Part shown: in pieces, positions 71 to 51,262 of the stretch
Position numbering within the stretch: the stretch's first letter is position 1
How the letters are laid out: each line of letters starts with the position of its first letter
Origin: Patescibacteria group bacterium
GTDB lineage: Bacteria; Patescibacteriota; Microgenomatia; Levybacterales; UBA12049
Direction of reading: 5' to 3'
DNA length: 56,707 bases
Assembly (NCBI GenBank): GCA_035510695.1
Contig: DATKGO010000062.1
Location: 1-56,707 of the forward strand
The notes under the pieces: model-generated
The model's database searches: none
What the model was told of the DNA's origin: nothing
Seen by the model: only the letters and a program-made list of their open reading frames with translations
Made by a program: the position numbers and the translations under genes

Positions 71-196
71 AGGATTATTAGTTTGTCCTGTTTTTTGGGA
101 AAAGTCAAATTTTAACCGAAAACTTATTTACGAAAAGTATATTACGTTATCAGCCAGACGCGAAAGACTTTTCATATTTGGTATATAATCAAATTA

Positions 197-664
197 ATGA
201 AGAAATGTGATCATAAAAGTGTGGGAATTTTGGTTTGGAAAAATGAAAAGCTGCTTTTGATTGAACGTGCCAGATTTCCCTTTGGTTTTGCTCCTCCCGC
301 AGGTCACGTGGATGCGGATACCACTTTTGAAAGTGCCGCAAAAAGAGAATTAGCTGAAGAGACAGGTTTGATAGCCACATCATTGCAAGTAGTTGCGATG
401 GGGAAGAAAGAAAATGTTTGTCGACGAACTGACGACAAATATCATGAATGGAAAATTTATTGTGTAGAAACAGAAGGTAGTTTGAAGACTGATCCGGCAG
501 AAGTTAAACAGGTAAATTGGCTTTCTTTAGCAGGGATAAGAGAATTGGCTGCTTTGACGAATCGGTATCTTAAAGGTGAGATATCCGAGACGGAATGGGA
601 GAAACGGCCGGGGATTGAACCTGTATGGTATGATTGGTTCAAAGAATTGGACATACTGAAATGA
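197..664 (+). CDS. NUDIX hydrolase
   Basis: Nudix box core RELAEETGL preceded by GHVDADTTFESAAK. Typical length of 155 aa. Confidence 0.85.
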   Translation: MKKCDHKSVGILVWKNEKLLLIERARFPFGFAPPAGHVDADTTFESAAKRELAEETGLIATSLQVVAMGKKENVCRRTDDKYHEWKIYCVETEGSLKTDPAEVKQVNWLSLAGIRELAALTNRYLKGEISETEWEKRPGIEPVWYDWFKELDILK

Positions 665-1104
665 AAAAGATAAAAATTATTACTCTTTGTGCAAGTCTCA
701 CGCATTACCGCCAGGTTTTGGACATCGAGAAACAATTAAAAAAATTGGGATATAAAGTTAAGTTGCCGCCTACGGCAAACGTCATGAAACGGACGAATAA
801 TTTTGATGTGTCAACGTATAAAACTTGGTATAAGAATAAAAATGATTATAAAAAGAAAACACAACTGATGAAGGCTCATTTTAAAAAAGTGTTGGCTGCG
901 GACGCGATTTTAGTAACCAATTTTGAGAAAAATAGTTTGCCCGGCTATATCGGTGGAAATGTTTTGATGGAGATGACAGCGGCGTTTATGAATAAGAAAA
1001 AGATTTTTATTTATAATCCCATTTCAGAAGATTTGGGAATAAAAGAAGAGGTCTACGGATTAAATCCCATTTTTATAGATGGAGATTTGGAAAAAATTAA
1101 GTAA
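661..1104 (+). CDS. nucleoside 2-deoxyribosyltransferase-like protein (tentative)
   Basis: ATG at 661 overlaps the NUDIX stop (ATGA coupling). The pattern ADAILVTNF...GYIGGNVLMEMTAAF...KKIFIY resembles the deoxyribosyltransferase-like fold; this is recalled from memory, not searched. Confidence 0.4.
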   Translation: MKKIKIITLCASLTHYRQVLDIEKQLKKLGYKVKLPPTANVMKRTNNFDVSTYKTWYKNKNDYKKKTQLMKAHFKKVLAADAILVTNFEKNSLPGYIGGNVLMEMTAAFMNKKKIFIYNPISEDLGIKEEVYGLNPIFIDGDLEKIK

Positions 1105-1111
1105 AGAGTAC

Positions 1112-1522
1112 GTCATTGCGAGGAGGGTTAAGAGCGTCAATGAGAGGAACAAAAAAGGTGTCATTCTGAGGCGTAGCCGAAGAATCTCTCGCGAATGCGA
1201 GAAAGATTTATGTCGTACTATGTTTATATTCTGACAAATAAATCTCACACACTATATGTTGGTGTTACTAATAATTTACCACGAAGACTTCAGGAGCACT
1301 CTCTTAAGTTAATGTCAAGCTTTACCAAAAGATACAAAATTGATAAGCTTATTTACTGTGAAATATTTGAAAACGTTTACGATGCAATAAGTGCTGAGAA
1401 AAAAATAAAAGGTTGGACAAGAAAGAAAAAAATAGAGTTAATAAAATCTATTAATCCGGAATTTAAGGAATTACAAATTATCTGAAACAAGTTCAGAGAT
1501 CCTTCACTGCGTTCAGGATGAC
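1112..1522 (+). mobile_element. GIY-YIG gene bracketed by inverted GTCAT-hairpin repeat units (candidate mobile or homing unit)
   Basis: The left unit is GTCATTCTGAGGCGTAGCCGAAGAATCTC (1160-1188), with a degenerate unit at 1112-1147. The right unit (1496-1522) reverse-complements to GTCATCCTGAACGCAGTGAAGGATCTC. Confidence 0.5.
1210..1485 (+). CDS. GIY-YIG nuclease family protein (UPF0213/YhbQ-like)
   Basis: MSYYVYILTNKSHTLYVGVTNNLPRRLQEH carries the GIY/YVG motifs. The size (91 aa) is typical. The start was moved to the ATG at 1210. Confidence 0.85.
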   Translation: MSYYVYILTNKSHTLYVGVTNNLPRRLQEHSLKLMSSFTKRYKIDKLIYCEIFENVYDAISAEKKIKGWTRKKKIELIKSINPEFKELQII

Positions 1523-1547
1523 ATTTTCTATTGGTTCAAGCTAGCTT

Positions 1548-2222
1548 TTAATGATTTTCAGGAGATTTCGAAGTGACGCTTGTGAGGTTTAAATACGCGG
1601 CCAGGGTGAGGTAATACAGCCAGTGCAGCATAAAAGTATAGACGACTCCATATTGGACGTTTAGAATAATTACCGGGAAAATAAAGCCGCCGAGAAAAGC
1701 CGCAGTAGTGGTTACTGCCCCAAAGAAAAAATCTCTTTTGAAAAGATATAAATGACTTAATCCGAAAATCAAAGCGAAAAGCAGCATGACTAGTTGATTT
1801 GAAAAGCCTAAGTCTTTTAGCATGGCGATGATTGAAATTGCGCCAACTTGCTGGGTTAAAATATTAAACGATTTAGTTACAATGTAGCGATAACTCATGG
1901 ATGCAAAATAGAATTTTTTTGCTTCATATTTTTGCAAAATATTTTGTTTTACGTGTTGTTTCATAAATTTGTAAAAAAGAAAAATGAAAAGGTAAAAGAA
2001 AAATAAAAATATAAACGCGATAGGGGAAAAGGTTAAAAAAAATTGCTTCAGATAAGGGGAATAGTATAAAAAGAAAATAATTGTAGAGAGAAGGAAAAGA
2101 ATCGAGGCTTTTTTATATTCACTAACATAATTTATTTTTTGACCTGAAAGTCTATTAAAGATTATGCCACCTGCGAAAAAGGCCAATATAAGATTTAATA
2201 GAGTAAGAGTAGTGTGCGGCAT
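1548..2222 (-). CDS. polytopic membrane protein, possibly a degenerate CPBP-type intramembrane protease homologue
   Basis: Multiple hydrophobic helices. FGLSHLYLF resembles CPBP motif 2, but the EExxxR motif is not seen (QQVGA in its place). Confidence 0.4.
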   Translation of the reverse strand: MPHTTLTLLNLILAFFAGGIIFNRLSGQKINYVSEYKKASILFLLSTIIFFLYYSPYLKQFFLTFSPIAFIFLFFFYLFIFLFYKFMKQHVKQNILQKYEAKKFYFASMSYRYIVTKSFNILTQQVGAISIIAMLKDLGFSNQLVMLLFALIFGLSHLYLFKRDFFFGAVTTTAAFLGGFIFPVIILNVQYGVVYTFMLHWLYYLTLAAYLNLTSVTSKSPENH

Positions 2223-2292
2223 AGCGCTAACGTTATTTTAACATAAGGAGTAAATTATTTGACAAACCTATAGACTGCTGTACTATAAGAGT

Positions 2293-2577
2293 ATGTCGCA
2301 TGTTTTTTATACTTCACGAAAGAGGCATATCTTCGATGAATTTATCTATCCGGTTTCATTGATAGCCCCAATTATGACAATTCCACAGCTTTTAAGTATT
2401 TGGTTGCAAAAATCTACGCAAGGAATTTCAATATTGACTTGGTCGGCTTATGCTTTAGTATCTTTGTTATGGATTATCTATGGGGTAATTCATAAAGAGA
2501 AGCCGATTATCGTTAGTAATTTTTTACTTTTCATTTTAGATACATCAATTGTAATCGGAGTTTTATTGTATTCTTGA
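2293..2577 (+). CDS. SemiSWEET / PQ-loop family transporter
   Basis: 94 aa with three predicted TM helices. PQ motif (IPQLLSIWLQKSTQGIS) followed by WIIYG. Confidence 0.7.
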   Translation: MSHVFYTSRKRHIFDEFIYPVSLIAPIMTIPQLLSIWLQKSTQGISILTWSAYALVSLLWIIYGVIHKEKPIIVSNFLLFILDTSIVIGVLLYS

Positions 2578-2600
2578 GATTGTTTATTTTCAGGTTAGTT

Positions 2601-2609
2601 TGTTATAAT
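2601..2609 (+). promoter_or_regulatory. extended -10 promoter (TGtTATAAT) 7 nt upstream of ATG 2617
   Basis: TGTTATAATCCTCAGT-ATG with no Shine-Dalgarno. The same TATAATCCTCAGTA string recurs at 6730. Confidence 0.55.
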
Positions 2610-2616
2610 CCTCAGT

Positions 2617-3261
2617 ATGCCAAATTTTGTTCAAGCAAAATTAATTTCATTCTTCAGTCAATACCAAAAACAGACATTTAATAAAGCAGAGATTCTTATT
2701 TATCCCCGTACTGTTCCACAGGGAGTTTTTTATTTGCGAAAAGGCGAAGTGAGAATGTACGCGATCAACAAAAACGGCAATGAATTGACCATAAATATTT
2801 TTAAACCTCATTCTTTTTTCCCCATGAATTGGGTAGTAAATGATTTCAGGGATGATTACATTTATGAAGCGACTGTTGACGCAGAAGTTTTTATCGGCCC
2901 GAAAGACAAATTTTTGGCTTTTCTTCATCAGGAACCCGACATTATCTTTGATTTACTACAAAGAATTTACAAAGGATTAGGCGGTTACTTTTTGCGCATG
3001 GAATCGTTACTTACCGGGGACGCGTATTTTAAGACGGTTGTGGCAATTTGCATTTATGCAAGAAGATTTGGTGTAAAAAATGAAGATGCAAGCGGCTTTA
3101 CAGTTGATGTCACCCAAAAACAGTTGGCAGCTCTTGCCGGTTTGACCCGGGAGACAGTGACGCGGGAAATCAAAAAAATCGCAGATAAAAAATTGGTGGC
3201 TTATCAAGGCAAAACTTTGATAGTTTTGGATATAAATAGGTTGGAGAAAGAGATACTTTGA
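2617..3261 (+). CDS. Crp/Fnr family transcriptional regulator
   Basis: N-terminal cNMP-binding-like beta-roll (GVFYLRKGEVRMY). C-terminal HTH (TQKQLAALAGLTRETVTREIKKI). Confidence 0.8.
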   Translation: MPNFVQAKLISFFSQYQKQTFNKAEILIYPRTVPQGVFYLRKGEVRMYAINKNGNELTINIFKPHSFFPMNWVVNDFRDDYIYEATVDAEVFIGPKDKFLAFLHQEPDIIFDLLQRIYKGLGGYFLRMESLLTGDAYFKTVVAICIYARRFGVKNEDASGFTVDVTQKQLAALAGLTRETVTREIKKIADKKLVAYQGKTLIVLDINRLEKEIL

Positions 3262-3296
3262 TTTAAGATTTATGATTTAAGAATAAAGATAAAAAT

Positions 3297-3363
3297 GTCA
3301 TTCCCGCGAAAGCGGGAATCCAGTTAACAAAAAATGGATCCCTGGTTTGCGTCCAGGGATGAC
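3297..3363. repeat. GTCAT-hairpin doublet (REPIN/MITE-like)
   Basis: GTCATTCCCGCGAAAGCGGGAATCC, a 14-nt spacer, then GGATCCCTGGTTTGCGTCCAGGGATGAC. Each unit is a perfect 8-bp hairpin and the two units are in inverted orientation. Confidence 0.85.
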
Positions 3364-3441
3364 AAAAACGTTTAAAAATTGTAAAATAATTTAGCATTTC
3401 CTCTTTACAACACTCCGGTAATGTACTAATCTATAACACAT

Positions 3442-4650
3442 ATGAATGTCTCCTCGATTCGTCAGGATTTCCCGCTTCTTAGAAAAGATAAACCGGTTGT
3501 GTATTTTGATTCCGCATGTCAGAGTTTGCGTCCGCAACAGGTGATTGATGCTTTGGTTGAATACTACTCAGAATATCCGGCTTGCGGCGGCAGAAGCACA
3601 CATCGTTTGGCCGATCGGGTAACTAAAGAAGTTGAGAAAGCCCGGGAAACTGTCAGGAAATTTATTAAAGCAGCGAAAAAAGAGGAGATAGTTTTTACCC
3701 GCAATACCACGGAAGGAATTAACTTAATTGCTCATTCATTAGGCCTGCAAAAAGGCGACGTAGTTATCTCATCCGACAAGGAACATAATTCCGATTTAAT
3801 TCCCTGGCAAGTTTTGGTTGAGCAAGTGGGAATTGAGCATATTATTGTTCCATCTCGGGAAAATAACACTTTTGATTTGGCGGCTTTTGAACACATTTTA
3901 CAGAAGCAAAAATCGGTGAAATTAGTCGCGATGTGTTTTACTTCCAATTTGGATAGTAACACAATTCCGGCCGCGGAAATTATTAAACTTTCACATAAAA
4001 AAGGAGCCTTGGTTTTGTTGGACGGCGCAGTAACCATTGCTCATCAGCCGATTGATGTGCGAAAGTTGGATGTCGATTTTCTGGTTTTCTCAGGACATAA
4101 AATCTGCGGGCCGTCAGGAATAGGAGTTTTGTACGGTAAACAAAAATTGCTGGAGAAATTATCACCTTTTATGGTTGGCGGAGATACGGTGGCTTGGTCG
4201 ACCTATACTACACATGAATTTTTGCCGGTTCCGGAGAAATTTGAAGCCGGGCTGCAGGATTATGCCGGAATTATCGGTTTAGGTAAAGCATTAGAATATG
4301 TTGAAAAGATCGGTCTGGATAATATTGCTAAACATGAAAAAGAATTGACTGTATATATGGCAGAGTTATTGGGGCAAATTCCCAATATGCACATTATCGG
4401 GCCGGATGCTAAAGAGCGTGGGAGCATTACTTCATTTTATATTCCGGGAATTGATTCTCATCAAATTGCCTTAATGCTGTCCGAGTCGGCAAATATTATG
4501 GTGCGTTCCGGTCAGCATTGTGTACATTCTTGGTTTGCGAAAAGAAATATAAAAGGGTCGGTACGAATTTCTCTGTCTTTTTATAATACGAAAGAAGAGA
4601 TAGAATACTTTGGCAAACAATTGAAAAAAGTTGTATCTGTTTTGGGTTGA
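3442..4650 (+). CDS. sufS: cysteine desulfurase, class V aminotransferase (SufS/CsdA-like)
   Basis: PLP-lysine context SGHKICGPSG and catalytic Cys context RSGQHCVH. Length 402 aa. Confidence 0.85.
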   Translation: MNVSSIRQDFPLLRKDKPVVYFDSACQSLRPQQVIDALVEYYSEYPACGGRSTHRLADRVTKEVEKARETVRKFIKAAKKEEIVFTRNTTEGINLIAHSLGLQKGDVVISSDKEHNSDLIPWQVLVEQVGIEHIIVPSRENNTFDLAAFEHILQKQKSVKLVAMCFTSNLDSNTIPAAEIIKLSHKKGALVLLDGAVTIAHQPIDVRKLDVDFLVFSGHKICGPSGIGVLYGKQKLLEKLSPFMVGGDTVAWSTYTTHEFLPVPEKFEAGLQDYAGIIGLGKALEYVEKIGLDNIAKHEKELTVYMAELLGQIPNMHIIGPDAKERGSITSFYIPGIDSHQIALMLSESANIMVRSGQHCVHSWFAKRNIKGSVRISLSFYNTKEEIEYFGKQLKKVVSVLG

Positions 4651-6743: not shown

Positions 6744-7787
6744 ATGAGTAGATTTCTCCTGATTCTTTCCATGCTTTTATCCATTGTCGTGGTGGTGGAA
6801 TCGGTTTACATTTACCATTATCCGCCGACTTTTTTGAAAAGCGTTATAAAAACACCACCAACTCCCAAACCTTTACTTGCCTATGCTTTTAGTAATCTAC
6901 AAAAGACCAAAATTCCAACATCAAATATTACACTTGGTTCTGTGGTTGATGATCAAACAAACTATCGTTCTCAAATATTTTATTATTCCACACCGGAAAA
7001 GCCAAACAGTACAAAGATGCTCAAAGTCAGCGGCTTGATGAATTTGCCGCAAACTCCGGGGAAATATCCGGTAATCGTGATGTTTCGCGGATTTGTGCCG
7101 GATAATATTTATAAACCCGGAGTCGGAACAGAACCGGTAGCGCAGGTGTTAGCGCAGCACGGTTATATTACTTTGGCTCCTGATTTTTTGGGTTACGGGC
7201 AGTCGGCAAGCGCATCGGCAGAAGCATTTGAAAACCGTTTCCAAACATATACTACTGCTTTATCAATGTTGTCTTCGTTAGCTACTTTGAATACCGGTTT
7301 GGCAACTGATTATTCCGGGACAATCAGCGCTGATATGACGAAAATCGGAATTTGGGGACACAGTAACGGCGGACACATCGCCTTATCTACTTTAGCCATC
7401 AGCGGTGTAACTTATCCTACGGTTTTGTGGGCACCGGTTTCAACGTCATTTCCTTATGATATTTTAGCTTATACCGACGAGTCCGACGATCAGGGAAAAT
7501 CTCTACGTAAAATTCTTGCCCAATTTGAAACGCTTTATAATACCGATGATTTTTCTCCTACTAATTTTTATTCCTGGATTAAAGCGCCGATGGAAATAGA
7601 TCAGGGGACAGCGGATGAGGAAGTTCCGTATTGGTGGTCGGATAATTTGGTGCAAACGTTAAAGAAAGATAAAATTGATGTTACGTATAACACGTATGCT
7701 GGAGCAGATCATAATATGCTTCCTTCCGGCTGGTCAAGCGCGGTGACAAATGATATTTCATTCTATAATAAACAATTTTCAAAATAA
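6744..7787 (+). CDS. secreted or anchored alpha/beta hydrolase (S9/dienelactone-hydrolase-like)
   Basis: N-terminal TM or signal segment. Nucleophile elbow GHSNGG. Late D and H residues (GTADEEV, ADHNM). Confidence 0.7.
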   Translation: MSRFLLILSMLLSIVVVVESVYIYHYPPTFLKSVIKTPPTPKPLLAYAFSNLQKTKIPTSNITLGSVVDDQTNYRSQIFYYSTPEKPNSTKMLKVSGLMNLPQTPGKYPVIVMFRGFVPDNIYKPGVGTEPVAQVLAQHGYITLAPDFLGYGQSASASAEAFENRFQTYTTALSMLSSLATLNTGLATDYSGTISADMTKIGIWGHSNGGHIALSTLAISGVTYPTVLWAPVSTSFPYDILAYTDESDDQGKSLRKILAQFETLYNTDDFSPTNFYSWIKAPMEIDQGTADEEVPYWWSDNLVQTLKKDKIDVTYNTYAGADHNMLPSGWSSAVTNDISFYNKQFSK

Positions 7788-9370: not shown

Positions 9371-9450
9371 AATTTATTTTTACTCTCTAATTGTAAGAAT
9401 TGCAACCAAAGGATTGTTAATGTATCTGTTCACACTTCTGACACGATTTT

Positions 9451-9530
9451 GTCATCCCGAACTTGTTTCGGGATCTAAAAAAGCTTGCCCTGAGCTCGTT
9501 TCAGGGATGCTGAATCAAGTTCAGCATGAC
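9451..9530. repeat. GTCAT-hairpin composite (three units)
   Basis: The forward unit is GTCATCCCGAACTTGTTTCGGGATC. On the other strand GTCATGCTGAACTTGATTCAGCATC is fused to the CCCTGAAACGAGCTCAGGG hairpin. Confidence 0.8.
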
Positions 9531-9585
9531 AATTTTATGTTAGGATTGTGAACTATTACTTGTTAATTTGTTATACTTAATATTA

Positions 9586-16151: not shown

Positions 16152-16658
16152 ATGGAAAACACGAATAATTCTGTGTTAGATCGCATGTTAGCAATGGGAG
16201 AAAGACTGCCGTTTTTTCTTCTTTTGCTAATTGCCGGATTTTTTTTGTTTAGAGAGAATTCGCAGCAGGTACTTTCGGCGAAAACAACGTCTTTAAAACC
16301 GGTAGATGAAAAAATAGTTATACCGACATACCCTCCCACGCCTACGCCGACTGAGACACCGACTCCTACCGATACGCCGACGCCAACTTGCACTCCAACA
16401 CCAACGGTTGATCCGACTAATGATGCGATTTGGGATAGTATCGCATATTGCGAAACACACGATAATTGGGGTGATGATACCGGAAACGGATATTATGGTG
16501 GTTTACAGTTTTCGCAAACTGCTTGGAATTCTGTGGGCGGCAGCGGGAATCCGGCTCAGGCATCACGAACCGAACAAATCGCGAGAGGGAAATTGCTTCA
16601 AAATCAGCGAGGCTGGGGACCCTGGAATGTCTGCGCGAAGAAGTTGGGATTGGATTAG
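16152..16658 (+). CDS. Rpf-like (resuscitation-promoting-factor type) transglycosylase with PT-rich linker
   Basis: WDSIAYCETHDNWGDDTGNGYYGGLQFSQTAWNSVGG...GWGPWNVCAKKLGL. TM anchor plus a (TPTP)n linker. Confidence 0.8.
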   Translation: MENTNNSVLDRMLAMGERLPFFLLLLIAGFFLFRENSQQVLSAKTTSLKPVDEKIVIPTYPPTPTPTETPTPTDTPTPTCTPTPTVDPTNDAIWDSIAYCETHDNWGDDTGNGYYGGLQFSQTAWNSVGGSGNPAQASRTEQIARGKLLQNQRGWGPWNVCAKKLGLD

Positions 16659-21388: not shown

Positions 21389-21472
21389 ATTTGTTTAAGA
21401 CTGGTGCATCATGTTGGGGGATGGTTGTAGGAGATTACGTAAATAAACAAATAAAAGAATGAGAGAAAGATA

Positions 21473-21556
21473 GATTGCTTCGCTTCGCTCGCAATGACGT
21501 AAGACTGGATTCCCGATCAGAGCCTGTACTCGACCTGATCGGGGGTCGGGAATGAC
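21473..21556. repeat. GTCAT-hairpin composite (two units, both on the minus strand)
   Basis: Reverse complements are GTCATTGCGAGCGAAGCGAAGCAATC and GTCATTCCCGACCCCCGATCAGG...CTGATCGGGAATCC. Confidence 0.8.
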
Positions 21557-21665
21557 GGTGATTTACCATTTTCATTTTGCAATTAAACAAATTTTTGTGT
21601 TTGAAAATTAAATCATTAAAAATTGATTGAAAATTTTCCCTTACCTTCTGTGGTAAAATAATTCT

Positions 21666-24099: not shown

Positions 24100-24159
24100 G
24101 CGGGGGTAAAATAGTCAATGCCAGGATGAGAGGCATTCCCAATAATACAATTATTTTTT

Positions 24160-24725
24160 GCGTTCTCTCTTTTAACGGAGCAGAGAACGCCAGCCTTTTA
24201 AGGCTGGTGGTGAATGCAAACTCTATCGGAGCAAATCAAGTATTGATTTGCGGAGATAGAGATGTCATGATCTGTGCGTGACAGAGCATAAGACAGGATC
24301 AAGTACAAAACACAGATTACTTTTTCATTTAGTATTTTGTCCCAAGTACCGAAGGAGGGTACTTTTGGGGGATGTAAAGCGGAGACTGGGGGAATTATTC
24401 ACACAAGCATGTGAGATGAATGACTGGGAGATCCATGAATTAAATATCCAGAAGGATCATGTTCACATGTTGTTGCAAATAAATCCCAGAGAAAGTCTGT
24501 CTCATGTCATGCAACTACTCAAAGGAGGGATAAGCTATATCATCAGGAAAGAATATCCAGACTTGGAAGAATTTCTCTGGGGGGACTCTTTCTGGGGAGA
24601 TGGATTTTTTGCAGAATCGGTAGGGACAAAGAATGAAAAAGTAATCAGAGAGTATATAAAAAACCAAGACAAGCAGAGATCATGACGTAGGAGTAAAATC
24701 TCCGTCCTTTAGGACGGGGATTCCA
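24160..24725 (+). mobile_element. IS200-type element (Y1 HUH transposase only) with subterminal hairpins
   Basis: Left hairpins are GCGTTCTCT...AGAGAACGC (24160-24190) and CCAGCCT-TTTA-AGGCTGG (24190-24207). The right hairpin is CCGTCC-TTTA-GGACGG (24702-24717). No tnpB. Confidence 0.75.
24278..24685 (+). CDS. tnpA: IS200/IS605 family Y1 (HUH) transposase TnpA
   Basis: LLFHLVFCPKYRR, HUH motif DHVHMLL and catalytic Tyr context IREYIKNQ. 135 aa. Confidence 0.85.
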   Translation: MTEHKTGSSTKHRLLFHLVFCPKYRRRVLLGDVKRRLGELFTQACEMNDWEIHELNIQKDHVHMLLQINPRESLSHVMQLLKGGISYIIRKEYPDLEEFLWGDSFWGDGFFAESVGTKNEKVIREYIKNQDKQRS

Positions 24726-28009: not shown

Positions 28010-29186
28010 TGTCGGTCTACCAAACGTAGGTAAAAGTACGTTATTTAATGCCTTGTTGAAAAAGCAGCTGGCGCTGGCGGCGAATTATCCTTTCGCTACG
28101 ATTGAACCAAATGTCGGAATTGTGCCGGTACCGGATGGAAGGCTTGAGGTTTTGGCAAAGATTGTTGCAGGAGAAGAGGCGGATCCTGCCGCTCGCTCTT
28201 CCCAAGGTGCTCCTGCTAGTCTTGCTGACGCTGCGAACGCAGATGCGCGCCTTGAGAGCCCTTCGCTCGCGTCACCCGCTAACCTTCCGCCGATTAAGCC
28301 GGCGACTGTTGAATTCCTTGATATTGCCGGACTGGTAAAAGGCGCGGCAGAAGGAGCAGGTTTAGGTAATAGATTTCTCTCCCATATCCGTGAAGTGTCG
28401 GTAGTTTGTCATGTCGTCCGCGCGTTTATCGATGAAAATATCATCAGGGAAGGCAGCAGTGACCCGGAAAATGATTTTGCGACCATTGAGACGGAATTGA
28501 TGTTGGCGGATTTGCAATCGGCGATGAATATCCAATCGCGCATCAAACGTTCAGATGATCCGGTGCAAAAAATGGCAATTGATAAAGTAGTTGATAATTT
28601 AAATAGCGGAATTCCGGTTCGCGAAATGCGATTTAGCGAAGAGGAAAACGAATATTTAAAAACGCTTTTCTTCCTGACGGCCAAACAGGAATTGGTGGTT
28701 TTAAATGTCAGTGATGATGAATATACAGCGAAAAATGCTGATTCATTAGTTGAAAAATATGCCGATATGTTACAGATTTCCAGAGAAAGATTAGTGGTGA
28801 TTAGTGCAAAAATTGAAGAAGAGCTGGCGCAATTGTCAGACGAAGAACAAAGTCAATATTTAGCCGATTTGGGTTTTAAGACTTCCGGTTTGGAACGACT
28901 TATTCAAAAAGCTTACAGCAGTTTGGGATTAATTTCTTTTCTTACAGCCGGGGAGAAGGAAGTGCGTGCTTGGACCATTCGAAAAGGTTCCACAGCTGTG
29001 GAAGCTTCAGGCGAGATCCATACCGATTTTATGAAAAAGTTTATAAAAGCGGAAGTAGTTTTCTTTGCCGATTTTGTAAAATTTGGCGGCTGGAAAGGGA
29101 GCAGAGAAAAGGGAAAGGCGAGATTGGAAGGGAAAGATTATATCATGCAGGACGGCGACGTCGTCGAGTTTAAGATCGGCGCATAA
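27990..29186 (+). CDS. ychF: redox-regulated ATPase YchF (Obg-like GTPase family) carrying a ~39-aa insertion
   Basis: GIVGLPNVGKSTLFNAL, FPFATIEPNVG, EFLDIAGLVKGA and a C-terminal TGS-like domain (FIKAEV...). Length is 398 aa versus roughly 363 aa for E. coli YchF as recalled. Confidence 0.9.
   Translation: MNLSVGIVGLPNVGKSTLFNALLKKQLALAANYPFATIEPNVGIVPVPDGRLEVLAKIVAGEEADPAARSSQGAPASLADAANADARLESPSLASPANLPPIKPATVEFLDIAGLVKGAAEGAGLGNRFLSHIREVSVVCHVVRAFIDENIIREGSSDPENDFATIETELMLADLQSAMNIQSRIKRSDDPVQKMAIDKVVDNLNSGIPVREMRFSEEENEYLKTLFFLTAKQELVVLNVSDDEYTAKNADSLVEKYADMLQISRERLVVISAKIEEELAQLSDEEQSQYLADLGFKTSGLERLIQKAYSSLGLISFLTAGEKEVRAWTIRKGSTAVEASGEIHTDFMKKFIKAEVVFFADFVKFGGWKGSREKGKARLEGKDYIMQDGDVVEFKIGA
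28167..28283 (+). repeat. GC-rich in-frame insert in ychF, probably degenerate GTCAT-family units
   Basis: Encodes AGEEADPAARSSQGAPASLADAANADARLESPSLASPAN. Contains CTTCGCTCGC (also present in the units at 21473 and 47002) and the CTGCGAACGCAG hairpin. Confidence 0.5.
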
Positions 29187-29952: not shown

Positions 29953-30228
29953 ATGCGAATATACGAATTAGCATTAGTTTTACGTACCAAATTGTCAGAC
30001 AAAGACCGGAAAAAAGTAGTGGATACGCTTAAAGAGTGGTTAAAAGACATGAAGGTAACCAAAGAAGAAGAATTTGGCCAAAAGCCGCTTGCGTATCCGA
30101 TTAAGAAAGAAGCAGCCGGATATTATTTGACATTACATTTGGAAGGTGAGACTATACCGGTAGATGTTGAGAGACGAATTTTGCAAACAGATGAAGTCTT
30201 GAGACATTTGTTAATCAGAACGAAGTGA
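29953..30228 (+). CDS. rpsF: 30S ribosomal protein S6
   Basis: MRIYELALVLRTKLSD...GYYLTLHLEG. Conserved rpsF-ssb-rpsR order. Confidence 0.85.
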   Translation: MRIYELALVLRTKLSDKDRKKVVDTLKEWLKDMKVTKEEEFGQKPLAYPIKKEAAGYYLTLHLEGETIPVDVERRILQTDEVLRHLLIRTK

Positions 30229-30236
30229 CATGCAAT

Positions 30237-30301
30237 GTCATCCTGAACTTGATTCAGGATCCAGAAAATTAAAAAAGATTCCGGATCAAGTCCGGAATGA
30301 C
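30237..30301. repeat. GTCAT-hairpin doublet (REPIN/MITE-like) between rpsF and ssb
   Basis: GTCATCCTGAACTTGATTCAGGATCC, a spacer, then GATTCCGGATCAAGTCCGGAATGAC. Confidence 0.85.
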
Positions 30302-30309
30302 AGTAGTTT

Positions 30310-30804
30310 ATGGCGAGAAGTTTAAATCGAGTACAATTGATTGGTAATTTAACTAGAGATCCGGAATTGCGTTATACGCCAAGTGGTACGGCAGTTTGTT
30401 CCTTTAGTCTGGCTACCAATCGGTCTTGGACAACTGATACGGGGGAGAAACACGAAGAAGCGGATTTTCATCGTATCGTTGCTTGGAATAAGTTGGCAGA
30501 ACTTTGCAGCCAGTTTTTGGTAAAAGGTCGCAAGGTTTATGTAGAGGGACGTTTGTCTACCAGAAATTGGACAACGCAGGACAATCAACCACGAACTACA
30601 ACCGAAGTTGTGATTGATGACATGATTTTGCTCGACAGTAAAGGTTTTAGCGGTAATAAAGCGGAAAATGCTGAAGAGAAAACCGAAGAGCCGAAAAAAA
30701 CTAAACCGGTTGCCAAACATGAAGAACCTGCTCCGGAGGAACCGTCCTCTGATCAATCAGCGGAAGGCGAACCGCAAGTCGCGCCGGATGATATACCATT
30801 TTAA
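30310..30804 (+). CDS. ssb: single-stranded DNA-binding protein
   Basis: OB fold (NRVQLIGNLTRDPELRYTPSG...FHRIVAWNKLAE) and acidic tail ending DDIPF. Confidence 0.9.
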   Translation: MARSLNRVQLIGNLTRDPELRYTPSGTAVCSFSLATNRSWTTDTGEKHEEADFHRIVAWNKLAELCSQFLVKGRKVYVEGRLSTRNWTTQDNQPRTTTEVVIDDMILLDSKGFSGNKAENAEEKTEEPKKTKPVAKHEEPAPEEPSSDQSAEGEPQVAPDDIPF

Positions 30805-37134: not shown

Positions 37135-37875
37135 ATGAAAAAGTTTTTATTCTCTTTCTATGCATTTTTTTTGCTTTTTTTAAATTTACCTATGACAAGT
37201 CGCGCCCAAGCCGACAGTCCCACAGATTCGCCTTCGCAATCTCCAACTAATACCCAGTCCAGTCCAACCACCTCGGTCTCTAATAGTCCATCTGCAGCTC
37301 CATCATTAACTGCAAGTTTAATCCCGGAAGAATCTCCTTCATCCACACCCAGTGTTTCGTCAGACCCTTCAGGTTCGCCGACGCCTTCTGTCAGTACGAC
37401 CCTTACTCCCACTTCATCAGTGACTCCATCTCAAACCTTAACATCTACGCTTAGTGGTACGCCCAGTGTTACTCCTACAGATACTTCAAGTACAACTCCG
37501 ACCCCAACAAGTTCTACAGATACGTCGACTCCGACGAGTCAACAGGCTCAGACAAATTCCGGGAATACTCCCACACCTACGCCGACCAATACCCCAACTC
37601 CGACACCTACGCCAAAACCTTTACTAATTCTTAGATCAATACCACCTCAAATCTCTGCCTTATTACCGTTAAATTTGTTGGATATGTCATATTATTCATC
37701 GCATAGATTGTCTCCCCAGGTTACACGTAATGCCATTTTTGTGGCGGCCATGTTCTTCATTTTCGGTTTAGTTTTTATTCAACCACAGCCGGTACGATTA
37801 TTAACTATGAAACTACGTAATAAATTAGCAATGTTGTCTTCGCCTTTTTCCAAGAGGATTTCTTTTGAAGGTTAA
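37135..37875 (+). CDS. secreted S/T/P-rich protein with C-terminal TM anchor
   Basis: Signal peptide ending SRAQA. About 150 aa of S/T/P low-complexity sequence including TPTPTPTNTPTPTPTP. C-terminal hydrophobic helix. Confidence 0.55.
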   Translation: MKKFLFSFYAFFLLFLNLPMTSRAQADSPTDSPSQSPTNTQSSPTTSVSNSPSAAPSLTASLIPEESPSSTPSVSSDPSGSPTPSVSTTLTPTSSVTPSQTLTSTLSGTPSVTPTDTSSTTPTPTSSTDTSTPTSQQAQTNSGNTPTPTPTNTPTPTPTPKPLLILRSIPPQISALLPLNLLDMSYYSSHRLSPQVTRNAIFVAAMFFIFGLVFIQPQPVRLLTMKLRNKLAMLSSPFSKRISFEG

Positions 37876-43087: not shown

Positions 43088-43120
43088 TAACATTATAACT
43101 TGATGAACTTTACGAACTTA
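43088..43120. repeat. left copy of a 32-nt near-perfect inverted repeat
   Basis: The reverse complement of 43089-43120 is TAAGTTCGTAAAGTTCATCAAGTTATAATGTT, matching 51083-51114 at 31 of 32 positions. Confidence 0.9.
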
Positions 43121-43551: not shown

Positions 43552-44244
43552 ATGCCGCAGTCAGGGGATATTTTCATTCGCTCCCCATCTTTACCCACCT
43601 CACAGCCTCAGAATTGGGTAAAAAAACAACAAATTGTCTACAATGATATGCCTACTCAACAGGGGATAAAACACGGAATGAGTATCTTACGACGTGCTCC
43701 GCCTTTACTTAATAGTATTCTAAATAATAAGTTTTTCCCTCGAATTTTACTTAATGAGAGTAAGGACAAAAGTTATCCTGAAATTTTAACCGAATTATAT
43801 AAAGAAGAATTTAAACAAAAAGAAAGTATAAAAAAGAGAATATTAGGAGCGGTAACCAAGTCGCAACGAATTATGCTTTCTCTATCTTCAATTTTTCCCC
43901 TGGATTTATTTCCAAGTAGTTTAATTATTGATGAAACCAAATTGACTATAATTTATCGAGACTTTTTTGCTTCGGCCAGAATTCATCAGGTAGATATAAA
44001 AGATGTCTCCAATGTTTTTGTAGAATATGCATTGTGTTTTGCCACTTTGAAAATTGTTTCGCGTACCTTTGTGGATAATGTCATGGATATTACAAATCTA
44101 TATAAGAAAGATGCTATGCGGGCGAAAAGTATGATCGAAGGTTTAAGGATGTTTATAAATGAAAACATTGATACATCCATGTATGAAACTGAAGAATTGT
44201 GTGAAAAAATATCTGCCTGTTATGATATAGGAGATAAAAATTAG
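43552..44244 (+). CDS. hypothetical protein
   Basis: The ORF is open from 43462 (TTG). The first in-frame ATG is at 43552. No recognisable motif. Confidence 0.4.
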   Translation: MPQSGDIFIRSPSLPTSQPQNWVKKQQIVYNDMPTQQGIKHGMSILRRAPPLLNSILNNKFFPRILLNESKDKSYPEILTELYKEEFKQKESIKKRILGAVTKSQRIMLSLSSIFPLDLFPSSLIIDETKLTIIYRDFFASARIHQVDIKDVSNVFVEYALCFATLKIVSRTFVDNVMDITNLYKKDAMRAKSMIEGLRMFINENIDTSMYETEELCEKISACYDIGDKN

Positions 44245-45512
44245 TTGTCTTTGAGTTGAGCAATTACTTCTTCCAGATTGAGAGTTTTTTGTTCACGGGT
44301 TTTAAGATTTTTTAATACAACAACGTTTTTTTCTACTTCATCGGGACCTTGGATTATTACAAAAGGTATTTGCTTTTGATCGGCGTATTTTAATTGTTTT
44401 TCCATTTTGGCATTGCTGTCGGAATAGAGTTCACAATTAATATTGTTCGAGCGAAGTCGAGAACTTATTTCCACAGCTTTATCTTCAAAATCCATATTGA
44501 AGATACTGACTAACACCTTTGTAGTTTGTAGGGAGGTTGGGAAAAGATTTTTTTCTTCCATAGCATCAAGTAAACGGTCAAATCCCAAAGCAAATCCGAC
44601 TGCCGGAACCTGCCTGCCGGCAAGTAGCCCAATTAAATTATTGTAACGTCCGCCGCCTGCTACAGAACCGGCAGTATACCCATCAATTTCTATTTCAAAA
44701 ATAAGACCGGTATAATAATCGAGCCCTCGGGCAAGGGTAGGTAAGAATATAAATTGCTCAGCAGATATTCCCATTCTTTTGATGAGGTGAAAAATAGTTT
44801 TCAAACGCATAGTCGGCTGTTGGTTTTGCAAACTTTGCAGAATAAAAGCGGCTTTTTCTTTAGCCAAACCGTTTTGTACCATTTCCTCAATTACTTTTTC
44901 TTCACCGATTTTTTTAAGTTTATCGATTGAACGAATAATCATCGGCAGTTCATCATCTTGGATATTAAATTGTGAGTTTTTAGTTAATTCGTTAAAAATA
45001 TTTCTGTCATTGATAAGAATTTTGAAATTAGGGAAGCCTAAAGCCTCAATCGTTTTTCCGGCGGCAACAATTGTTTCCGCGTCGGATAGGGGAGTGTCAA
45101 CCCCGACTATATCCACGTCACATTGCAGAAATTCTCGGTATCTGCCTTTTTGCGTGTTTTCCGCCCGCCAGACAGGTTGAATTTGATAGCGTTTAAAAGG
45201 CATAGGTAAGAGAGGTTGACCTTGTGGTGAGTTTGCCGAACCATATTCGGAAATTACACGGGCCAATGGAACGGTTTGATCATAGCGCATAGCCACGCGG
45301 CGGCCTCCGTTGTCCTCGAAACGGTACATGAGTTTATCCCCTTCGCTTCCATACTTACCCATGAGCAGTTCTTCGTATTCCAAAGCCGGCGTTTCCAATG
45401 GCTCAAAGCCAAAGGAAGCGAATGCAGATTTGATTTTCTCAATCATGTATTGCCGCTTTCTGGCTTCAATGGGTAGAAAGTCTCGAAATCCTTTTAATGT
45501 TTGAATATTCAT
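44241..45512 (-). CDS. hisS: histidine--tRNA ligase
   Basis: Start trimmed to MNIQTLKGFRDFLP. Class II motifs (YRFEDNGGRRVAMRYDQTVPLAR, FKRYQIQPVWRAE, GGGRYNNL). Confidence 0.9.
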   Translation of the reverse strand: MNIQTLKGFRDFLPIEARKRQYMIEKIKSAFASFGFEPLETPALEYEELLMGKYGSEGDKLMYRFEDNGGRRVAMRYDQTVPLARVISEYGSANSPQGQPLLPMPFKRYQIQPVWRAENTQKGRYREFLQCDVDIVGVDTPLSDAETIVAAGKTIEALGFPNFKILINDRNIFNELTKNSQFNIQDDELPMIIRSIDKLKKIGEEKVIEEMVQNGLAKEKAAFILQSLQNQQPTMRLKTIFHLIKRMGISAEQFIFLPTLARGLDYYTGLIFEIEIDGYTAGSVAGGGRYNNLIGLLAGRQVPAVGFALGFDRLLDAMEEKNLFPTSLQTTKVLVSIFNMDFEDKAVEISSRLRSNNINCELYSDSNAKMEKQLKYADQKQIPFVIIQGPDEVEKNVVVLKNLKTREQKTLNLEEVIAQLKDN

Positions 45513-45551
45513 AACCATATCATAGCATATACTGAGCTTATTCATAATAGG

Positions 45552-45560
45552 TGTTATAAT
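45552..45560 (+). promoter_or_regulatory. extended -10 promoter (TGtTATAAT) 6 nt upstream of ATG 45567
   Basis: TGTTATAATCAAGCT-ATG with no SD. Confidence 0.55.
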
Positions 45561-45566
45561 CAAGCT

Positions 45567-46584: not shown

Positions 46585-47799
46585 TTAGATAGTGATAAAG
46601 TTTTTTGAAGAATTGGTTAGCTGAATGAGTTTACCGTTTTGAATTGTATATAAGTCTTCAATTCGGATCCCGTATTTGCCATTTAAACCCTGCCTGCCGG
46701 CAGGCAAGTATATTCCCGGTTCAAGAGAAAAGACCATACCTTCTTTTAGTTCGTCTATGGAGTTTGGTGAGAGAGAAGGAGCTTCATGGACTTCCAGACC
46801 GATTCCGTGACCGAGAGAATGGGGAATAGAGGGATAACCTTGAGAAATAATATGTTGTCGTGCAATGTGATCGAGATCTGCAGCGTTAACAATGTTGTCA
46901 TTCCGGACTCGATCCGGAATCCAGTCTTTATCTCTCTGGATTCCAGCTTTTGCTGGAATAACAGAAGATGCTGAACTAAATTCAGCATGACGTTTAAATT
47001 TGGATTGCTTCGCTTCGCTCGCAATGACGTTAGTAATGAACGCCACTGCTTTTTGTTGTGCGGTTAAAACTGTTTCATAGACTTTAATTTCCTCAGCCTT
47101 TGGTTTACCGAAAAATAAAGTTCTGGACATATCGGAACAATAATTTTCAAATTTTACGCCAAAATCAAAAAGGACAAATTGATTGGGTTTTAATTTATTA
47201 TCACCGGTCAAATGATGGGGGATAGCTGCGTTTGCTCCGAATGCAACAATTGTCGAAAAAGATAGTTCAGCCCCCTGCTCGCGTATAAAATTTTCCAATT
47301 GATAAGCCAATTCTTTTTCAGTTATTGACTCATGAATTTGTTTAAGAATAAAAGTAAACGCGGCATCGCCAATAGCACAGGCTTTTTGAATAATTTGAAT
47401 TTCATCTCTAGTTTTTTGTTCTCTAAGTGTTCTTAAATTTACAGTTTTAAGTTCCGGCAATACTTTTTTAAATGTTACATATTCGGCAACGGTCAAATTG
47501 TCTCCCTCAAACCCGATGCTTTCTATTTTTTCCTCTGTTATAATTTTTTGCAGTAATTTAGAAGAGGAATTTTTTTGATTTCTTTCCAGAATTTGAAAAG
47601 TTGGAACTGCATCTTTAACCTGCTCGGTATATCTGGCATCAGTAATTAAATATTTGTTTGTCTTTGTGATAAACAGGTATGCTTCCCGTTCATCTTTAGA
47701 GAATCCGGAATAGCCTGTTAAATAAATAATGTTGGGAACGGAAGAAATTAGAAGAGCATCAAGGTGACTGGTATTGAGTAAATTGTGTAAGTAATCCAT
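46585..47799 (-). CDS. pepP: M24B Xaa-Pro aminopeptidase carrying a 44-aa repeat-derived insertion
   Basis: Pita-bread motifs FDFGVKFENYCSDMSRT, HSLGHGIGLEVHE, FSLEPGIY and IRIEDL. The insertion VIASEAKQS...WIPDRVRND is encoded by 46897-47028. Confidence 0.85.
   Translation of the reverse strand: MDYLHNLLNTSHLDALLISSVPNIIYLTGYSGFSKDEREAYLFITKTNKYLITDARYTEQVKDAVPTFQILERNQKNSSSKLLQKIITEEKIESIGFEGDNLTVAEYVTFKKVLPELKTVNLRTLREQKTRDEIQIIQKACAIGDAAFTFILKQIHESITEKELAYQLENFIREQGAELSFSTIVAFGANAAIPHHLTGDNKLKPNQFVLFDFGVKFENYCSDMSRTLFFGKPKAEEIKVYETVLTAQQKAVAFITNVIASEAKQSKFKRHAEFSSASSVIPAKAGIQRDKDWIPDRVRNDNIVNAADLDHIARQHIISQGYPSIPHSLGHGIGLEVHEAPSLSPNSIDELKEGMVFSLEPGIYLPAGRQGLNGKYGIRIEDLYTIQNGKLIQLTNSSKNFITI
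46897..47028. repeat. 132-bp block of four GTCAT-family hairpin units inside the pepP reading frame
   Basis: Four 27-nt units (46897-46923, 46936-46962, 46963-46989, 47002-47028) with two 12-nt spacers. Total is 44 codons. Confidence 0.85.
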
Positions 47800-49767: not shown

Positions 49768-51093
49768 ATGGCAAAGATAAAAACTCCTCCGCATAACGAC
49801 GAAGCAGAGCAAAGTGTACTTGGAGCAATACTAATTGATAAAGAAGCTATGACCCTTGCTTCCGGTATTTTGCGGCCCGAACATTTTTATAACGAACTTT
49901 ACGGTCTAATTTTTTCCGCGATGATTAGGATTCATGAAGACAGACGGCCGATCGATATTCTGACCATTACCAATGAGTTAAAAAAACACAATACAGATAA
50001 TAAAATAAAATCCTCGGTTTTAACCGATCTGGTTAACGCGGTACCTACAGCCGCCAATATTGAAGAGTACGCTCAAATCGTCAAAGAAAACGCAGTCAAA
50101 CGTGCTTTAATTCATGCAGCCACGGAAGTTGCAGAATTAGGTTTTCAGGAAGATAAAGATGTGAAAGAATTATTGGATAAAGCGGAATCCAGCATCTTTT
50201 CAATCTCACAAGCGCATATTAAACGGAATTTTATTCCGATTAGGGAAACACTGACCGAAAGTTTTGATCGTTTGGAGGAATTACATCGTTTGGGCGAGGG
50301 ATTACGCGGTGTTCCGACAGGCTTTACGGATTTGGACAAAATGCTTTCGGGAATGCAAAAATCAAATTTGCTTATTCTGGCAGCCCGTCCCGGACAAGGT
50401 AAAACCGCTTTAGTGGTAAACATTGCTCAATATGTAAGTTTAATTCAAAAAAAGGCCGTCGGTATTTTCTCTTTGGAAATGAGTAAAGAAGAATTGGTTG
50501 ATCGTCTCATGGTTTCTCAGGCAGATGTGGACGCTTGGCGGCATAAAACCGGCAGGTTAAACGAGGACGATTGGGGTAGATTATCCGATGCCATGGGACA
50601 GTTGGCGGAAGCGCCTTTATTTATTGATGATACTCCCGGTTTATCAATTGCCGAAATGCGTAGTAAAGCCCGCCGTTTGCAGCTTGAACAAAATTTGGGT
50701 CTGATTATTGTTGATTATTTGCAGTTGGTTGATGCGGGTCAAAAATTTGAGAATCGTGTGCTTGAAGTTTCACACGTTTCCAAATCGCTGAAGAATTTGG
50801 CTCGTGAATTGAATGTTCCGGTTCTAGCCGCATCTCAGCTTTCACGCGCGGTTGAGCATAGGGGAGAACGCAGGCCGCAGTTGGCAGATCTACGTGAATC
50901 AGGCGCAATTGAACAAGACGCCGACGTAGTTATGTTTATTTATCGTCCGGATGCAGAAGTTACCTCCACTAATATTCCGACTAAACTATTAATCGCCAAA
51001 CATCGTAACGGCGCCACAGGGGAAATTGACTTGCTGTTCCGCGGTGATCGCGTCCGATTTTACTCGGTTGAAAAACAACAAGTAAGTTCATAA
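49768..51093 (+). CDS. dnaB: replicative DNA helicase DnaB
   Basis: PPHNDEAEQSVLGAIL, Walker A AARPGQGKTA, IVDYLQL, SQLSRAVE and ESGAIEQDADV. Confidence 0.95.
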   Translation: MAKIKTPPHNDEAEQSVLGAILIDKEAMTLASGILRPEHFYNELYGLIFSAMIRIHEDRRPIDILTITNELKKHNTDNKIKSSVLTDLVNAVPTAANIEEYAQIVKENAVKRALIHAATEVAELGFQEDKDVKELLDKAESSIFSISQAHIKRNFIPIRETLTESFDRLEELHRLGEGLRGVPTGFTDLDKMLSGMQKSNLLILAARPGQGKTALVVNIAQYVSLIQKKAVGIFSLEMSKEELVDRLMVSQADVDAWRHKTGRLNEDDWGRLSDAMGQLAEAPLFIDDTPGLSIAEMRSKARRLQLEQNLGLIIVDYLQLVDAGQKFENRVLEVSHVSKSLKNLARELNVPVLAASQLSRAVEHRGERRPQLADLRESGAIEQDADVVMFIYRPDAEVTSTNIPTKLLIAKHRNGATGEIDLLFRGDRVRFYSVEKQQVSS

Positions 51094-51114
51094 AGTTCAT
51101 CAAGTTATAATGTT
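51083..51114. repeat. right copy of the 32-nt inverted repeat (overlaps the dnaB stop codon)
   Basis: TAAGTTCATAAAGTTCATCAAGTTATAATGTT. Confidence 0.9.
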
Positions 51115-51262
51115 TATAAAGTATTTCAACAATTTGACAATGAAACAATTTTCTCGTAACTTTATAACTTTCAACATTAAAACTTTATAACTACGGTATT
51201 TTGCCTCTTCACTTTTATTATAAAAAGTTGTTACACTAAATTAGGAGAGGGGGTGAATTAGT

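Follow-up and report, generated by a model that had tools for sequence, protein, structure and literature searches.

GTC-tagged hairpin repeats around a small GIY-YIG nuclease gene in a Patescibacteria contig: probable Ssn-related motifs

Short hairpins behind a GTC tag are dispersed over contig DATKGO010000062.1 of a Patescibacteria group bacterium (assembly GCA_035510695.1). The question raised by this locus is what kind of element these repeats are and which enzyme acts on them. The whole stretch of 56,707 nucleotides (56.7 kb, GC 37%), called the window here, was analyzed. An initial annotation had described the repeats as REP/REPIN-like, i.e., as repetitive extragenic palindromes (REPs) with the inverted doublets (REPINs) that are mobilized by REP-associated tyrosine transposases (RAYTs). 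We consider with good confidence that the repeats belong to the Ssn-related motifs (NTS/SRM), another name for CGTC-tagged REPs, that they would be nicked as single-stranded DNA by the Ssn nuclease of the window, and that they would have spread from cassettes around its gene, ssn. The supported partner of the units is the GIY-YIG protein of open reading frame (ORF) 1210-1485, which the initial annotation named merely as a test candidate.

The hairpin units were counted as 13 clear and three atypical ones, i.e., 16 in total, at seven loci (Table 1). The clear units were verified by exact string match. The initial annotation had reported at least 16 clear units at eight loci; the total was reached, but only with the atypical units included, and the loci were seven. 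Each unit begins with an unpaired (C/T)GTC tag, which is followed by a stem of 8-9 bp opening with AT, a short loop, a complementary arm ending with AT, and a C with a 2-nt tail. The tag is TGTC in nine of the clear units, CGTC in three and TGTT in one; GTT stands in place of GTC in unit 46936-46963(-). AT at the stem start is present in all 13, the loops are 4-7 nt long, and the tails are CCA in 6/13 and CTN or CCC in the others. GTC before the palindrome together with C after it is found in 12 of the 13 units. Nine units, called classic here, have 8-bp stems without mismatches. The remaining four, i.e., units 1159, 1496, 21470, and 47000, are imperfect hairpins with internal G.A mismatches in tandem, enclosed by a 5-bp outer stem and a 2-3 bp inner stem. 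Inverted doublets with outward tags had been noted in the initial annotation, and such head-to-head pairs were indeed seen at 3296/3364, 9450/9531, 30236/30302, and 46896/46963, and also around ssn.

The copies are more numerous than the composition of the window would give, as was found with a pattern scan of the kind that had been proposed. The strict pattern (GTC-AT-N5-8-loop-complement-AT-C with at most one mismatch) had nine matches in the window, of which eight were true units, while 200 dinucleotide shuffles gave a mean of 0.40 (sd 0.61, maximum 3). The pentamer GTCAT by itself was not enriched in the window (103 observed vs 93 expected), so only the tag and the hairpin together are informative. 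All seven stem pairs listed in the initial annotation were present where they had been read, and its claim that the stems vary while pairing is kept was borne out. Every one of the 72 stem positions of the nine classic units is Watson-Crick paired, over seven different stems; the six variable positions carry one to four pair types each, and none of 5000 permutations of the 3' arms matched this level of pairing.

Two covariance models were used. R1 was trained on seven window units of equal length and found four untrained window units at E <=0.16. Its scores on the reverse strand of the palindromes were far lower; therefore, the units are oriented. R2 was built from 43 flanking units of other genomes only, and it detected 12 units in the window at E <=0.35, with the classic units at E 0.003-0.35. 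The doublets and the array of four units were also folded as single-stranded DNA, with z-scores between -4.3 and -5.5. No match in the window came from a tRNA scan or from Rfam at gathering thresholds. The units are not unusually stop-free (4.0 open frames of six vs 3.75 +/- 0.29 in shuffled units), a property that could have accounted for their being tolerated in genes. The MAFFT alignment of all 13 units was discarded, as the 3' arms were out of register, and equal-length subsets and manual register were used. A control in which AT-starting hairpins were combined with each of the 64 three-base tags was swamped by A/T-rich low-complexity hairpins and was uninformative.

The ssn gene encodes a 91-aa protein, in which no domain besides GIY-YIG was found by Pfam scan. 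NCBIfam had no specific model for it, the PADLOC defense models gave no matches on Ssn and its two neighbors, and the nearest PDB sequences were UPF0213 proteins at only E=2e-6. The exact 91-aa sequence had no database record. A 96-aa version, starting from an upstream ATG, is recorded on a 3.2-kb contig that is identical to window positions 112-3324. This contig is an independent assembly of the same organism, and its end lies within unit 3296-3323, as expected of a multi-copy repeat.

By tblastn against PLSDB, a Neisseria gonorrhoeae sequence was matched, in which locus L083 (NZ_CP119140.1) has an unannotated 94-aa ORF at 1501-1785. This ORF is taken to be SsnA on the basis of its length, the residues Y6, Y17, and E64, which were mutated in the Ssn paper, and its flanking NTS copies. 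The two proteins align end-to-end (36% identity over 89 residues, E=6e-20), and a profile of the relatives of the window protein matched the Neisseria ORF with an hhalign probability of 99.4%. Y6, Y16, and E63 of the window protein align with the catalytic Y6, Y17, and E64 of SsnA. The record NZ_CP119140.1 is a 2.17-Mb N. gonorrhoeae chromosome, almost unannotated, which is filed in PLSDB as a plasmid. It was this database artifact, i.e., the misfiled chromosome, that made the comparison with SsnA possible.

The ssn gene is bracketed by the inverted units 1159-1188(+) and 1496-1523(-), with the tags outward. As read from the sequence, the gene and its flanking units are the published 'NTS-ssn-NTS' cassette. 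Cores identical to the downstream unit 1496-1523 also flank GIY-YIG genes at two other loci (L007 and L051), and the truncated unit 1111-1125 has the same sequence as the left half of CGTCATTGCGAGGAGCGAAGCGACGAAGCAATC, the full unit that is found beside GIY-YIG genes at other places (L076).

The pairing of such hairpins with such a gene has already been described, and it is not a new kind of system. In the study of Chenal et al. (2025, Nat Commun), NTS, a longer form of dRS3 with the consensus CGTCATTCCCGCGMAVGCGGGAATCYRG, and SRM motifs were shown to flank and co-occur with the small GIY-YIG gene ssnA, and the NTS-ssnA-NTS layout was likened to an insertion sequence (PMC11893778). The Ssn family was defined there by CDD family cd10448. 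SsnA binds the hairpin solely as single-stranded DNA and cuts it a few nucleotides upstream of the motif; cleavage requires the three bases preceding the palindrome, whereas binding depends most on the C just after it (PMC11893778). The initial annotation had supposed that a hairpin plus a fixed tag is what gets recognized. This view is qualified by the finding that the activity of Neisseria SsnA was abolished when the palindrome sequence was altered with the hairpin retained (PMC11893778). The window system resembles the published one in protein length (~91-94 aa), in the single domain with the conserved catalytic Tyr/Tyr/Glu, in the oriented hairpins that bracket the gene, in the dispersed copies, and in the GTC and C on the two sides of the palindrome. 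Unit 3296-3323 (TGTCATTCCCGCGAAAGCGGGAATCCAG) differs from the Neisseria NTS consensus by one base. The differences are the host, which belongs to Patescibacteria (Candidate Phyla Radiation, CPR) with a GC of 37%, the mismatched gene-proximal units, and the in-frame copies in the pepP gene.

The units also agree with the CGTC-tagged REP superfamily of Di Nocera et al. (2013, BMC Genomics). Its members have an unpaired CGTC tag, which is often TGTC and has TGTC/CCTC as variants, 8-9 bp stems whose first two positions are a complementary A and T, loops of 4-5 nt, and a CCA tail; head-to-head dimers predominate and some units are intragenic (PMC3733652). No associated tyrosine transposase was reported and no dedicated enzyme was found. 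Neisseria dRS3 belongs to this superfamily, as do RPE-4 and RPE-6 of Rickettsia (PMC3733652). The window units share the unpaired CGTC/TGTC tag, the AT-starting stems of 8-9 bp, the head-to-head dimers, the occurrence of some units inside a gene, and the lack of a tyrosine transposase partner. Loops and tails agree in part, with short loops that range over 4-7 nt and CCA in only 6/13 tails. The units differ in the CPR host, which is not among the listed phyla, i.e., Proteobacteria, Chlorobi, Bacteroidetes, Spirochaetes, and Thermotogae (PMC3733652). The initial annotation knew of no such system in a CPR-like genome. The CGTC REPs and the NTS/SRM-Ssn pair were already known in 2013 and 2025, respectively. 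Neither Patescibacteria nor CPR is named in the main text of the Ssn paper (PMC11893778).

The cassette was then surveyed in one genome per species with the profile of the window protein's relatives. The 80 loci found (52-66% identity) span more than 15 phyla, including Gamma- and Deltaproteobacteria, Saccharibacteria and other CPR, Acidobacteria, Chloroflexi, Cyanobacteria, Planctomycetes, Ignavibacteria, Zixibacteria, Latescibacteria, Clostridia, Elusimicrobia, and others. A GTC-tagged hairpin was located within 300 bp of the gene at 66 of the 80 loci, and on both sides of it at 51. The orientation with a plus unit upstream and a minus unit downstream, as in the window, was seen at 43/80, and the background further out was 0.25 per kb. 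The proximal units are nearly always of the form TGTCAT(T/C)CTGA(G/A)-inner hairpin-(C/T)GAAG(A/G)ATCTC, the same type as the two ssn-adjacent units of the window. Their inner pair, which the search did not impose, covaries (27 G-C, 13 A-U). The published SRM pattern, HGTCWYN(0-2)YYVSBRHN(0-5)WNVSBRGN(0-2)RNCYNB, was derived from 29 genomes of four phyla (PMC11893778), and it matches only two of the 80 loci. The gene-proximal G.A-mismatch hairpins are a distinct subtype outside this search definition. Because this subtype is missed by the pattern, published counts of SRM elements are probably underestimates.

A further cassette was found at locus L082, where the ssn homolog is 77% identical and likewise flanked by units, in a gene neighborhood different from that of the window. 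The doublet 3296-3364 recurs together with its spacer at positions 1-75 of the same locus, beside sugar epimerase genes, whereas its neighbors in the window are a Crp-family gene on one side and a class-V aminotransferase gene on the other. This recurrence in another neighborhood fits a REPIN-like composite element. A metagenome search with a first pattern, which contained the conserved spacer of 3296-3364, gave no matches. With a relaxed pattern, 36 contigs with GC from 33% to 65% matched the tail-to-tail core of the heterodimer, and 22 of these 36 carried the outward GTCATTCCCGC tag on the left unit.

The name REP/REPIN-like was therefore suitable for the oriented, tagged hairpins and for the doublet that recurs with its spacer, but the link to RAYT was not upheld. 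According to this link, the hairpins would be REPs that the Y1 (HUH) transposase of ORF 24278-24685 mobilizes by cutting and rejoining DNA at single-stranded hairpins. The inverted doublets resemble REPINs, a Y1 transposase gene lies in the window, and, as in REPIN-RAYT systems, oriented hairpins with an unpaired tag, inverted doublets as the apparent unit, and a single-copy enzyme gene flanked by repeats are present. However, the Y1 protein reached 138 bits with the IS200 equivalog model, for which the cut-off is 55, but no more than 31 bits with the RAYT model (cut-off 80). Its gene has its own unrelated flanking hairpins (CCAGCC-TTTTAA-GGCTGG and TCCGTCC-TTTA-GGACGG), and no GTCAT unit was found within ~2.7 kb of it. 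The tag here is CGTC/TGTC with the AT of the stem, not the GTAG tag of RAYT-associated REPs, and CGTC REPs were reported without tyrosine transposases (PMC3733652). Moreover, the GIY-YIG protein is a hydrolytic nuclease, whereas HUH/Y1 enzymes work with a covalent intermediate. Mobilization by the Y1 enzyme is thus very unlikely, and the Y1 gene is an ordinary copy of the insertion sequence (IS) IS200, not the partner of the units. The copy looks complete (window 24140-24720), with subterminal hairpins at ~24191-24208 (CCAGCCTTTTAAGGCTGG) and ~24701-24717 (TCCGTCCTTTAGGACGG).

A case that argues for movement of the units was found in the pepP gene. The span 46897-47028, i.e., 132 nt or 44 codons, is in frame and stop-free within the pepP ORF 46585-47799(-), which encodes an M24 Xaa-Pro peptidase. 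Its translation includes ...VIASEAKQS...VIPAKAGIQ...WIPDRVRND..., and it splits the Pfam and PDB alignments. The insert is absent from the closest pepP homolog (L121, on a 751-kb contig with conserved gene order), which has an empty site. Since this homolog is only 58% identical, the presence and absence were judged on orthologous genes, i.e., at deep divergence only. No unit was found at E <0.4 in 21 kb of this closest syntenic relative. In contrast, a Levybacteria ortholog (L120) carries a different head-to-head doublet in the same loop, detected at the DNA level at 7680-7707 (E=9e-9) and 7730-7761. The initial annotation had proposed to compare orthologous intergenic regions of sister genomes for presence or absence; here the difference was seen at an orthologous site within a gene, between more distant genomes. 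Several other pepP orthologs have loop inserts with the peptides CHSERSEES, SFPRKRES, and LRPQDDG, which by back-translation look repeat-encoded. A protein search with the 47-aa peptide of the pepP insert gave no usable candidates.

Four units of ~28 nt make up the array in pepP. Rickettsia palindromic elements (RPEs) are single elements and longer (~100-150 bp). The two are alike in being palindromic repeats in frame within protein genes, translated as extra loop segments. RPE-4 and RPE-6 were equated with CGTC families (PMC3733652).

Could the hairpins be structures selected by the host, such as terminators, mRNA stabilizers, or protein-binding sites, with no link to a nuclease? REPs play such roles in enterobacteria (PMC3733652), most copies in the window lie just 3' of genes or between co-directional genes, and two arms of the 3296-3364 doublet were called terminator-like on the minus strand. 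However, these calls do not concern the strand of the neighboring genes but the opposite one, and the T tract is missing from most units. Copies also stand within coding sequence and in the rpsF-ssb operon, where the doublet 30236-30302 occupies the 81-nt spacer between rpsF (29953-30228) and ssb (30310-30804). The strong and oriented association with ssn across phyla would be left unexplained, and there was no Rfam match. A role of this kind without the nuclease is improbable.

Integration targets for site-specific recombinases or IS110-family elements are still less probable. This idea comes from Neisseria, in which dRS3, the core of NTS, is a known target of a phage recombinase (PMC11893778). 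No inserted element interrupts or abuts any unit of the window, where not all ORFs were screened for recombinases, and the sole insertion sequence, IS200, does not adjoin a unit.

The reading as Ssn-related motifs would work as follows. The oriented hairpin modules of ~28 nt would be bound as single-stranded DNA and nicked just upstream of the tag by Ssn, whose putative gene stands within an inverted pair of units. The remaining copies, i.e., single units or inverted doublets, would have spread from ssn cassettes. They would persist where the harm is small, e.g., in intergenic spacers, including that of the rpsF-ssb operon, and in frame in the tolerant pepP loop. With outward tags, each outer edge of a doublet or cassette would receive one nick, the two being on opposite strands, and the geometry would be REPIN-like rather than IS200-like. 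Since GIY-YIG enzymes are hydrolytic and form no covalent intermediate, any copying of units would have to rely on host repair or replication for the joining.

The specificity for single-stranded DNA, the dependence of cleavage on the GTC tag, and the role of the C after the palindrome in binding are taken from the Neisseria and Wolbachia homologs. By analogy with these, the Ssn of the window would cut the units of the window, and we infer that nicking by Ssn drives their spread. The units are most likely Ssn-dependent selfish or semi-domesticated elements.

Several points weigh against this reading. The window protein and the Neisseria ORF share only 36% identity. The published SRM pattern matches only one of the 13 window units (3296-3323; expected 0.055), because the stems of the others are A/T-richer or contain G.A mismatches. 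Neisseria SsnA recognizes sequence as well as structure; therefore, a single Ssn may be unable to serve all nine stem variants, and no second ssn gene was seen in the 56.7-kb contig. In the survey of 80 loci, the outer 5-bp pairing was imposed by the search, and only the inner pairs are free evidence of covariation. Finally, the nuclease function of this Ssn is a prediction from homologs, and any route of copying is a proposal for it as for the other members of its family.

The units might instead be immobile, with a domesticated Ssn that cuts incoming or exposed single-stranded DNA and modulates natural transformation or recombination. In Neisseria meningitidis, deletion of ssnA raised transformation ~5-fold for NTS-bearing DNA, and mutation of NTS removed the effect (PMC11893778). 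The retention of the GTC-before and C-after determinants in 12/13 window units is in line with such a function. However, nothing in the window bears on competence. In addition, the presence of the ssn cassette in non-syntenic places and of different units in the same pepP loop across lineages argues for continuing or recent movement. We regard strictly immobile units as possible but doubtful. Control of incoming single-stranded DNA is itself a live alternative, and it is compatible with a role as a mobile element.

What is modestly new here is the CPR host, the G.A-mismatch hairpin subtype, and the in-frame pepP array with an empty site in a syntenic relative. The enzyme partner of CGTC REPs was an open question in 2013 and was answered for Proteobacteria in 2025 by Ssn, and the answer is now extended to a CPR genome. 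The pepP case can be used to study element movement and its tolerance in reduced genomes. Each new pair of Ssn and motif is also a candidate sequence-specific single-strand DNA nuclease for biotechnology. In a bolder view, the Patescibacteria Ssn-SRM pair would be active within the genome as an element with a specificity class of its own, marked by the gene-proximal hairpins with 5-bp stem, tandem G.A mismatches and inner stem that the published motif misses. Its cassette would be exchanged among more than 15 phyla and would repeatedly drop hairpins in frame into surface loops of essential proteins, i.e., pepP here and in Levybacteria, and possibly YchF. This view is speculative and less likely than not. 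If it were true, such elements would time and again change the length of proteins in very small genomes.

Table 1. Hairpin units, the ssn gene, and associated features of the window
Position	Strand	Feature	Evidence
1111-1125	+	Truncated unit, left half only (CGTCATTGCGAGGAG), without right arm	Read directly
1159-1188	+	Gene-proximal unit upstream of ssn (TGTCATTCTGAGGCGTAGCCGAAGAATCTC), inner stem 3 bp	R2 E=1.5e-6; R1 E=0.003; DNA fold
1186-1201	+	Second hairpin TCTCGC-GAAT-GCGAGA between upstream unit and ssn start codon	Fold
1210-1485	+	ssn, 91-aa single-domain GIY-YIG protein	Pfam GIY-YIG, residues 8-79, E=2e-16
1481-1497	+	Hairpin TCTGAA-ACAAG-TTCAGA overlapping ssn stop codon	Read directly; fold
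1496-1523	-	Gene-proximal unit downstream of ssn (TGTCATCCTGAACGCAGTGAAGGATCTC), inverted relative to unit 1159	R2 E=7e-10
3296-3364	both	Inverted doublet, tags outward: 3296-3323(+) / 3334-3364(-)	DNA fold z=-5.5
9450-9531	both	Three units: 9450-9478(+), 9487-9508(-), 9503-9531(-)	Fold z=-4.7
21470-21558	-	Two units: 21470-21499 (CGTCATTGCGAGCGAAGCGAAGCAATC), ~21506-21558 (ATTCCCGA arms)	R2 E=0.002 for 21471-21499
28176-28292	+	YchF in-frame insert, 39 codons, GC-rich, Ala/Ser/Pro-rich	Residues 63-101 relative to PDB 1jal
30236-30302	both	Inverted doublet: 30236-30264(+) / 30274-30302(-)	R1 E ~1e-9 (training units); fold z=-4.3
46896-47029	both	Four-unit array: 46896-46924(+), 46936-46963(-), 46964-46992(-), 47000-47029(-)	R1 and R2 matches; fold z=-5.0

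Two atypical units are listed in Table 1 within larger groups. The unit 9487-9508(-) is tagless and abuts the next unit, and the unit ~21506-21558(-) has a long inner hairpin.

Two further hairpins belong to the ssn gene itself. The 3' arm of the hairpin at 1186-1201 overlaps the likely ribosome-binding site of ssn. Counterparts upstream of the GIY-YIG gene were found in L082 (~3306-3325), L001, and L002, whereas more distant loci are without it. The stems vary by locus with the pairing kept (TCTCGC/GCGAGA vs CTCTCAG/CTGAGAG), and this hairpin may be a translational control element of ssn. The sequence of the hairpin over the stop codon also occurs directly after the ssn homolog in L082.

A degenerate set of units had been proposed at 28167-28283. 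The region does lie in a real insert of 39 codons in YchF, but neither R1 nor R2 found a unit in the insert at E up to 10. The insert has a GC of 58-62%, compared with 37% for the window. For most of the 150 best representatives, the alignment skips the insert and picks up again at query residue ~100. It is absent from nine of ten aligned homologs, and a comparable insert was seen only in P0250. Its derivation from SRM units is no more than a possibility.

A second palindrome type, TGCCTGCCGGCAGGCA, was found at 46688-46703, inside pepP, and at 44611-44626, inside the histidyl-tRNA synthetase (HisRS) ORF 44241-45563, in which the copy is partial. In pepP it is part of a short in-frame insert read LPAGRQGL. 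PAGRQG/PAGRHG inserts were present in four of 19 aligned pepP sequences, i.e., the window, P0014, P0029, and P0015. The 12-mer core of the palindrome occurs twice, vs 0.05 expected.

At the right end of the doublet 3296-3364, the unit end ATGACA is followed by 17 nt and TAAAAT (3359-3387). This is a 10/12 match to the sigma-70 promoter consensus, as a consensus match only, and the aminotransferase gene at 3442 follows 55 nt downstream of it. Boxes resembling the -35 element might be supplied by the ends of units.

Other repeats were noticed in the window. A 32-nt inverted repeat (AACATTATAACTTGATGAACTTTACGAACTTA) has arms at 43089-43120 and 51083-51114, which are 97% complementary, 8 kb apart, and in two intergenic regions, and further CTTTATAACT-like motifs are found at 51150-51200; the inverted repeat is possibly an operator or promoter element that is shared. 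On the plus strand, periodic repeats of 18 nt that are related to each other (CTCCCACGCCTACGCCGAC and similar) occur at 16333-16414 and 37568-37613, and they could encode low-complexity linkers.

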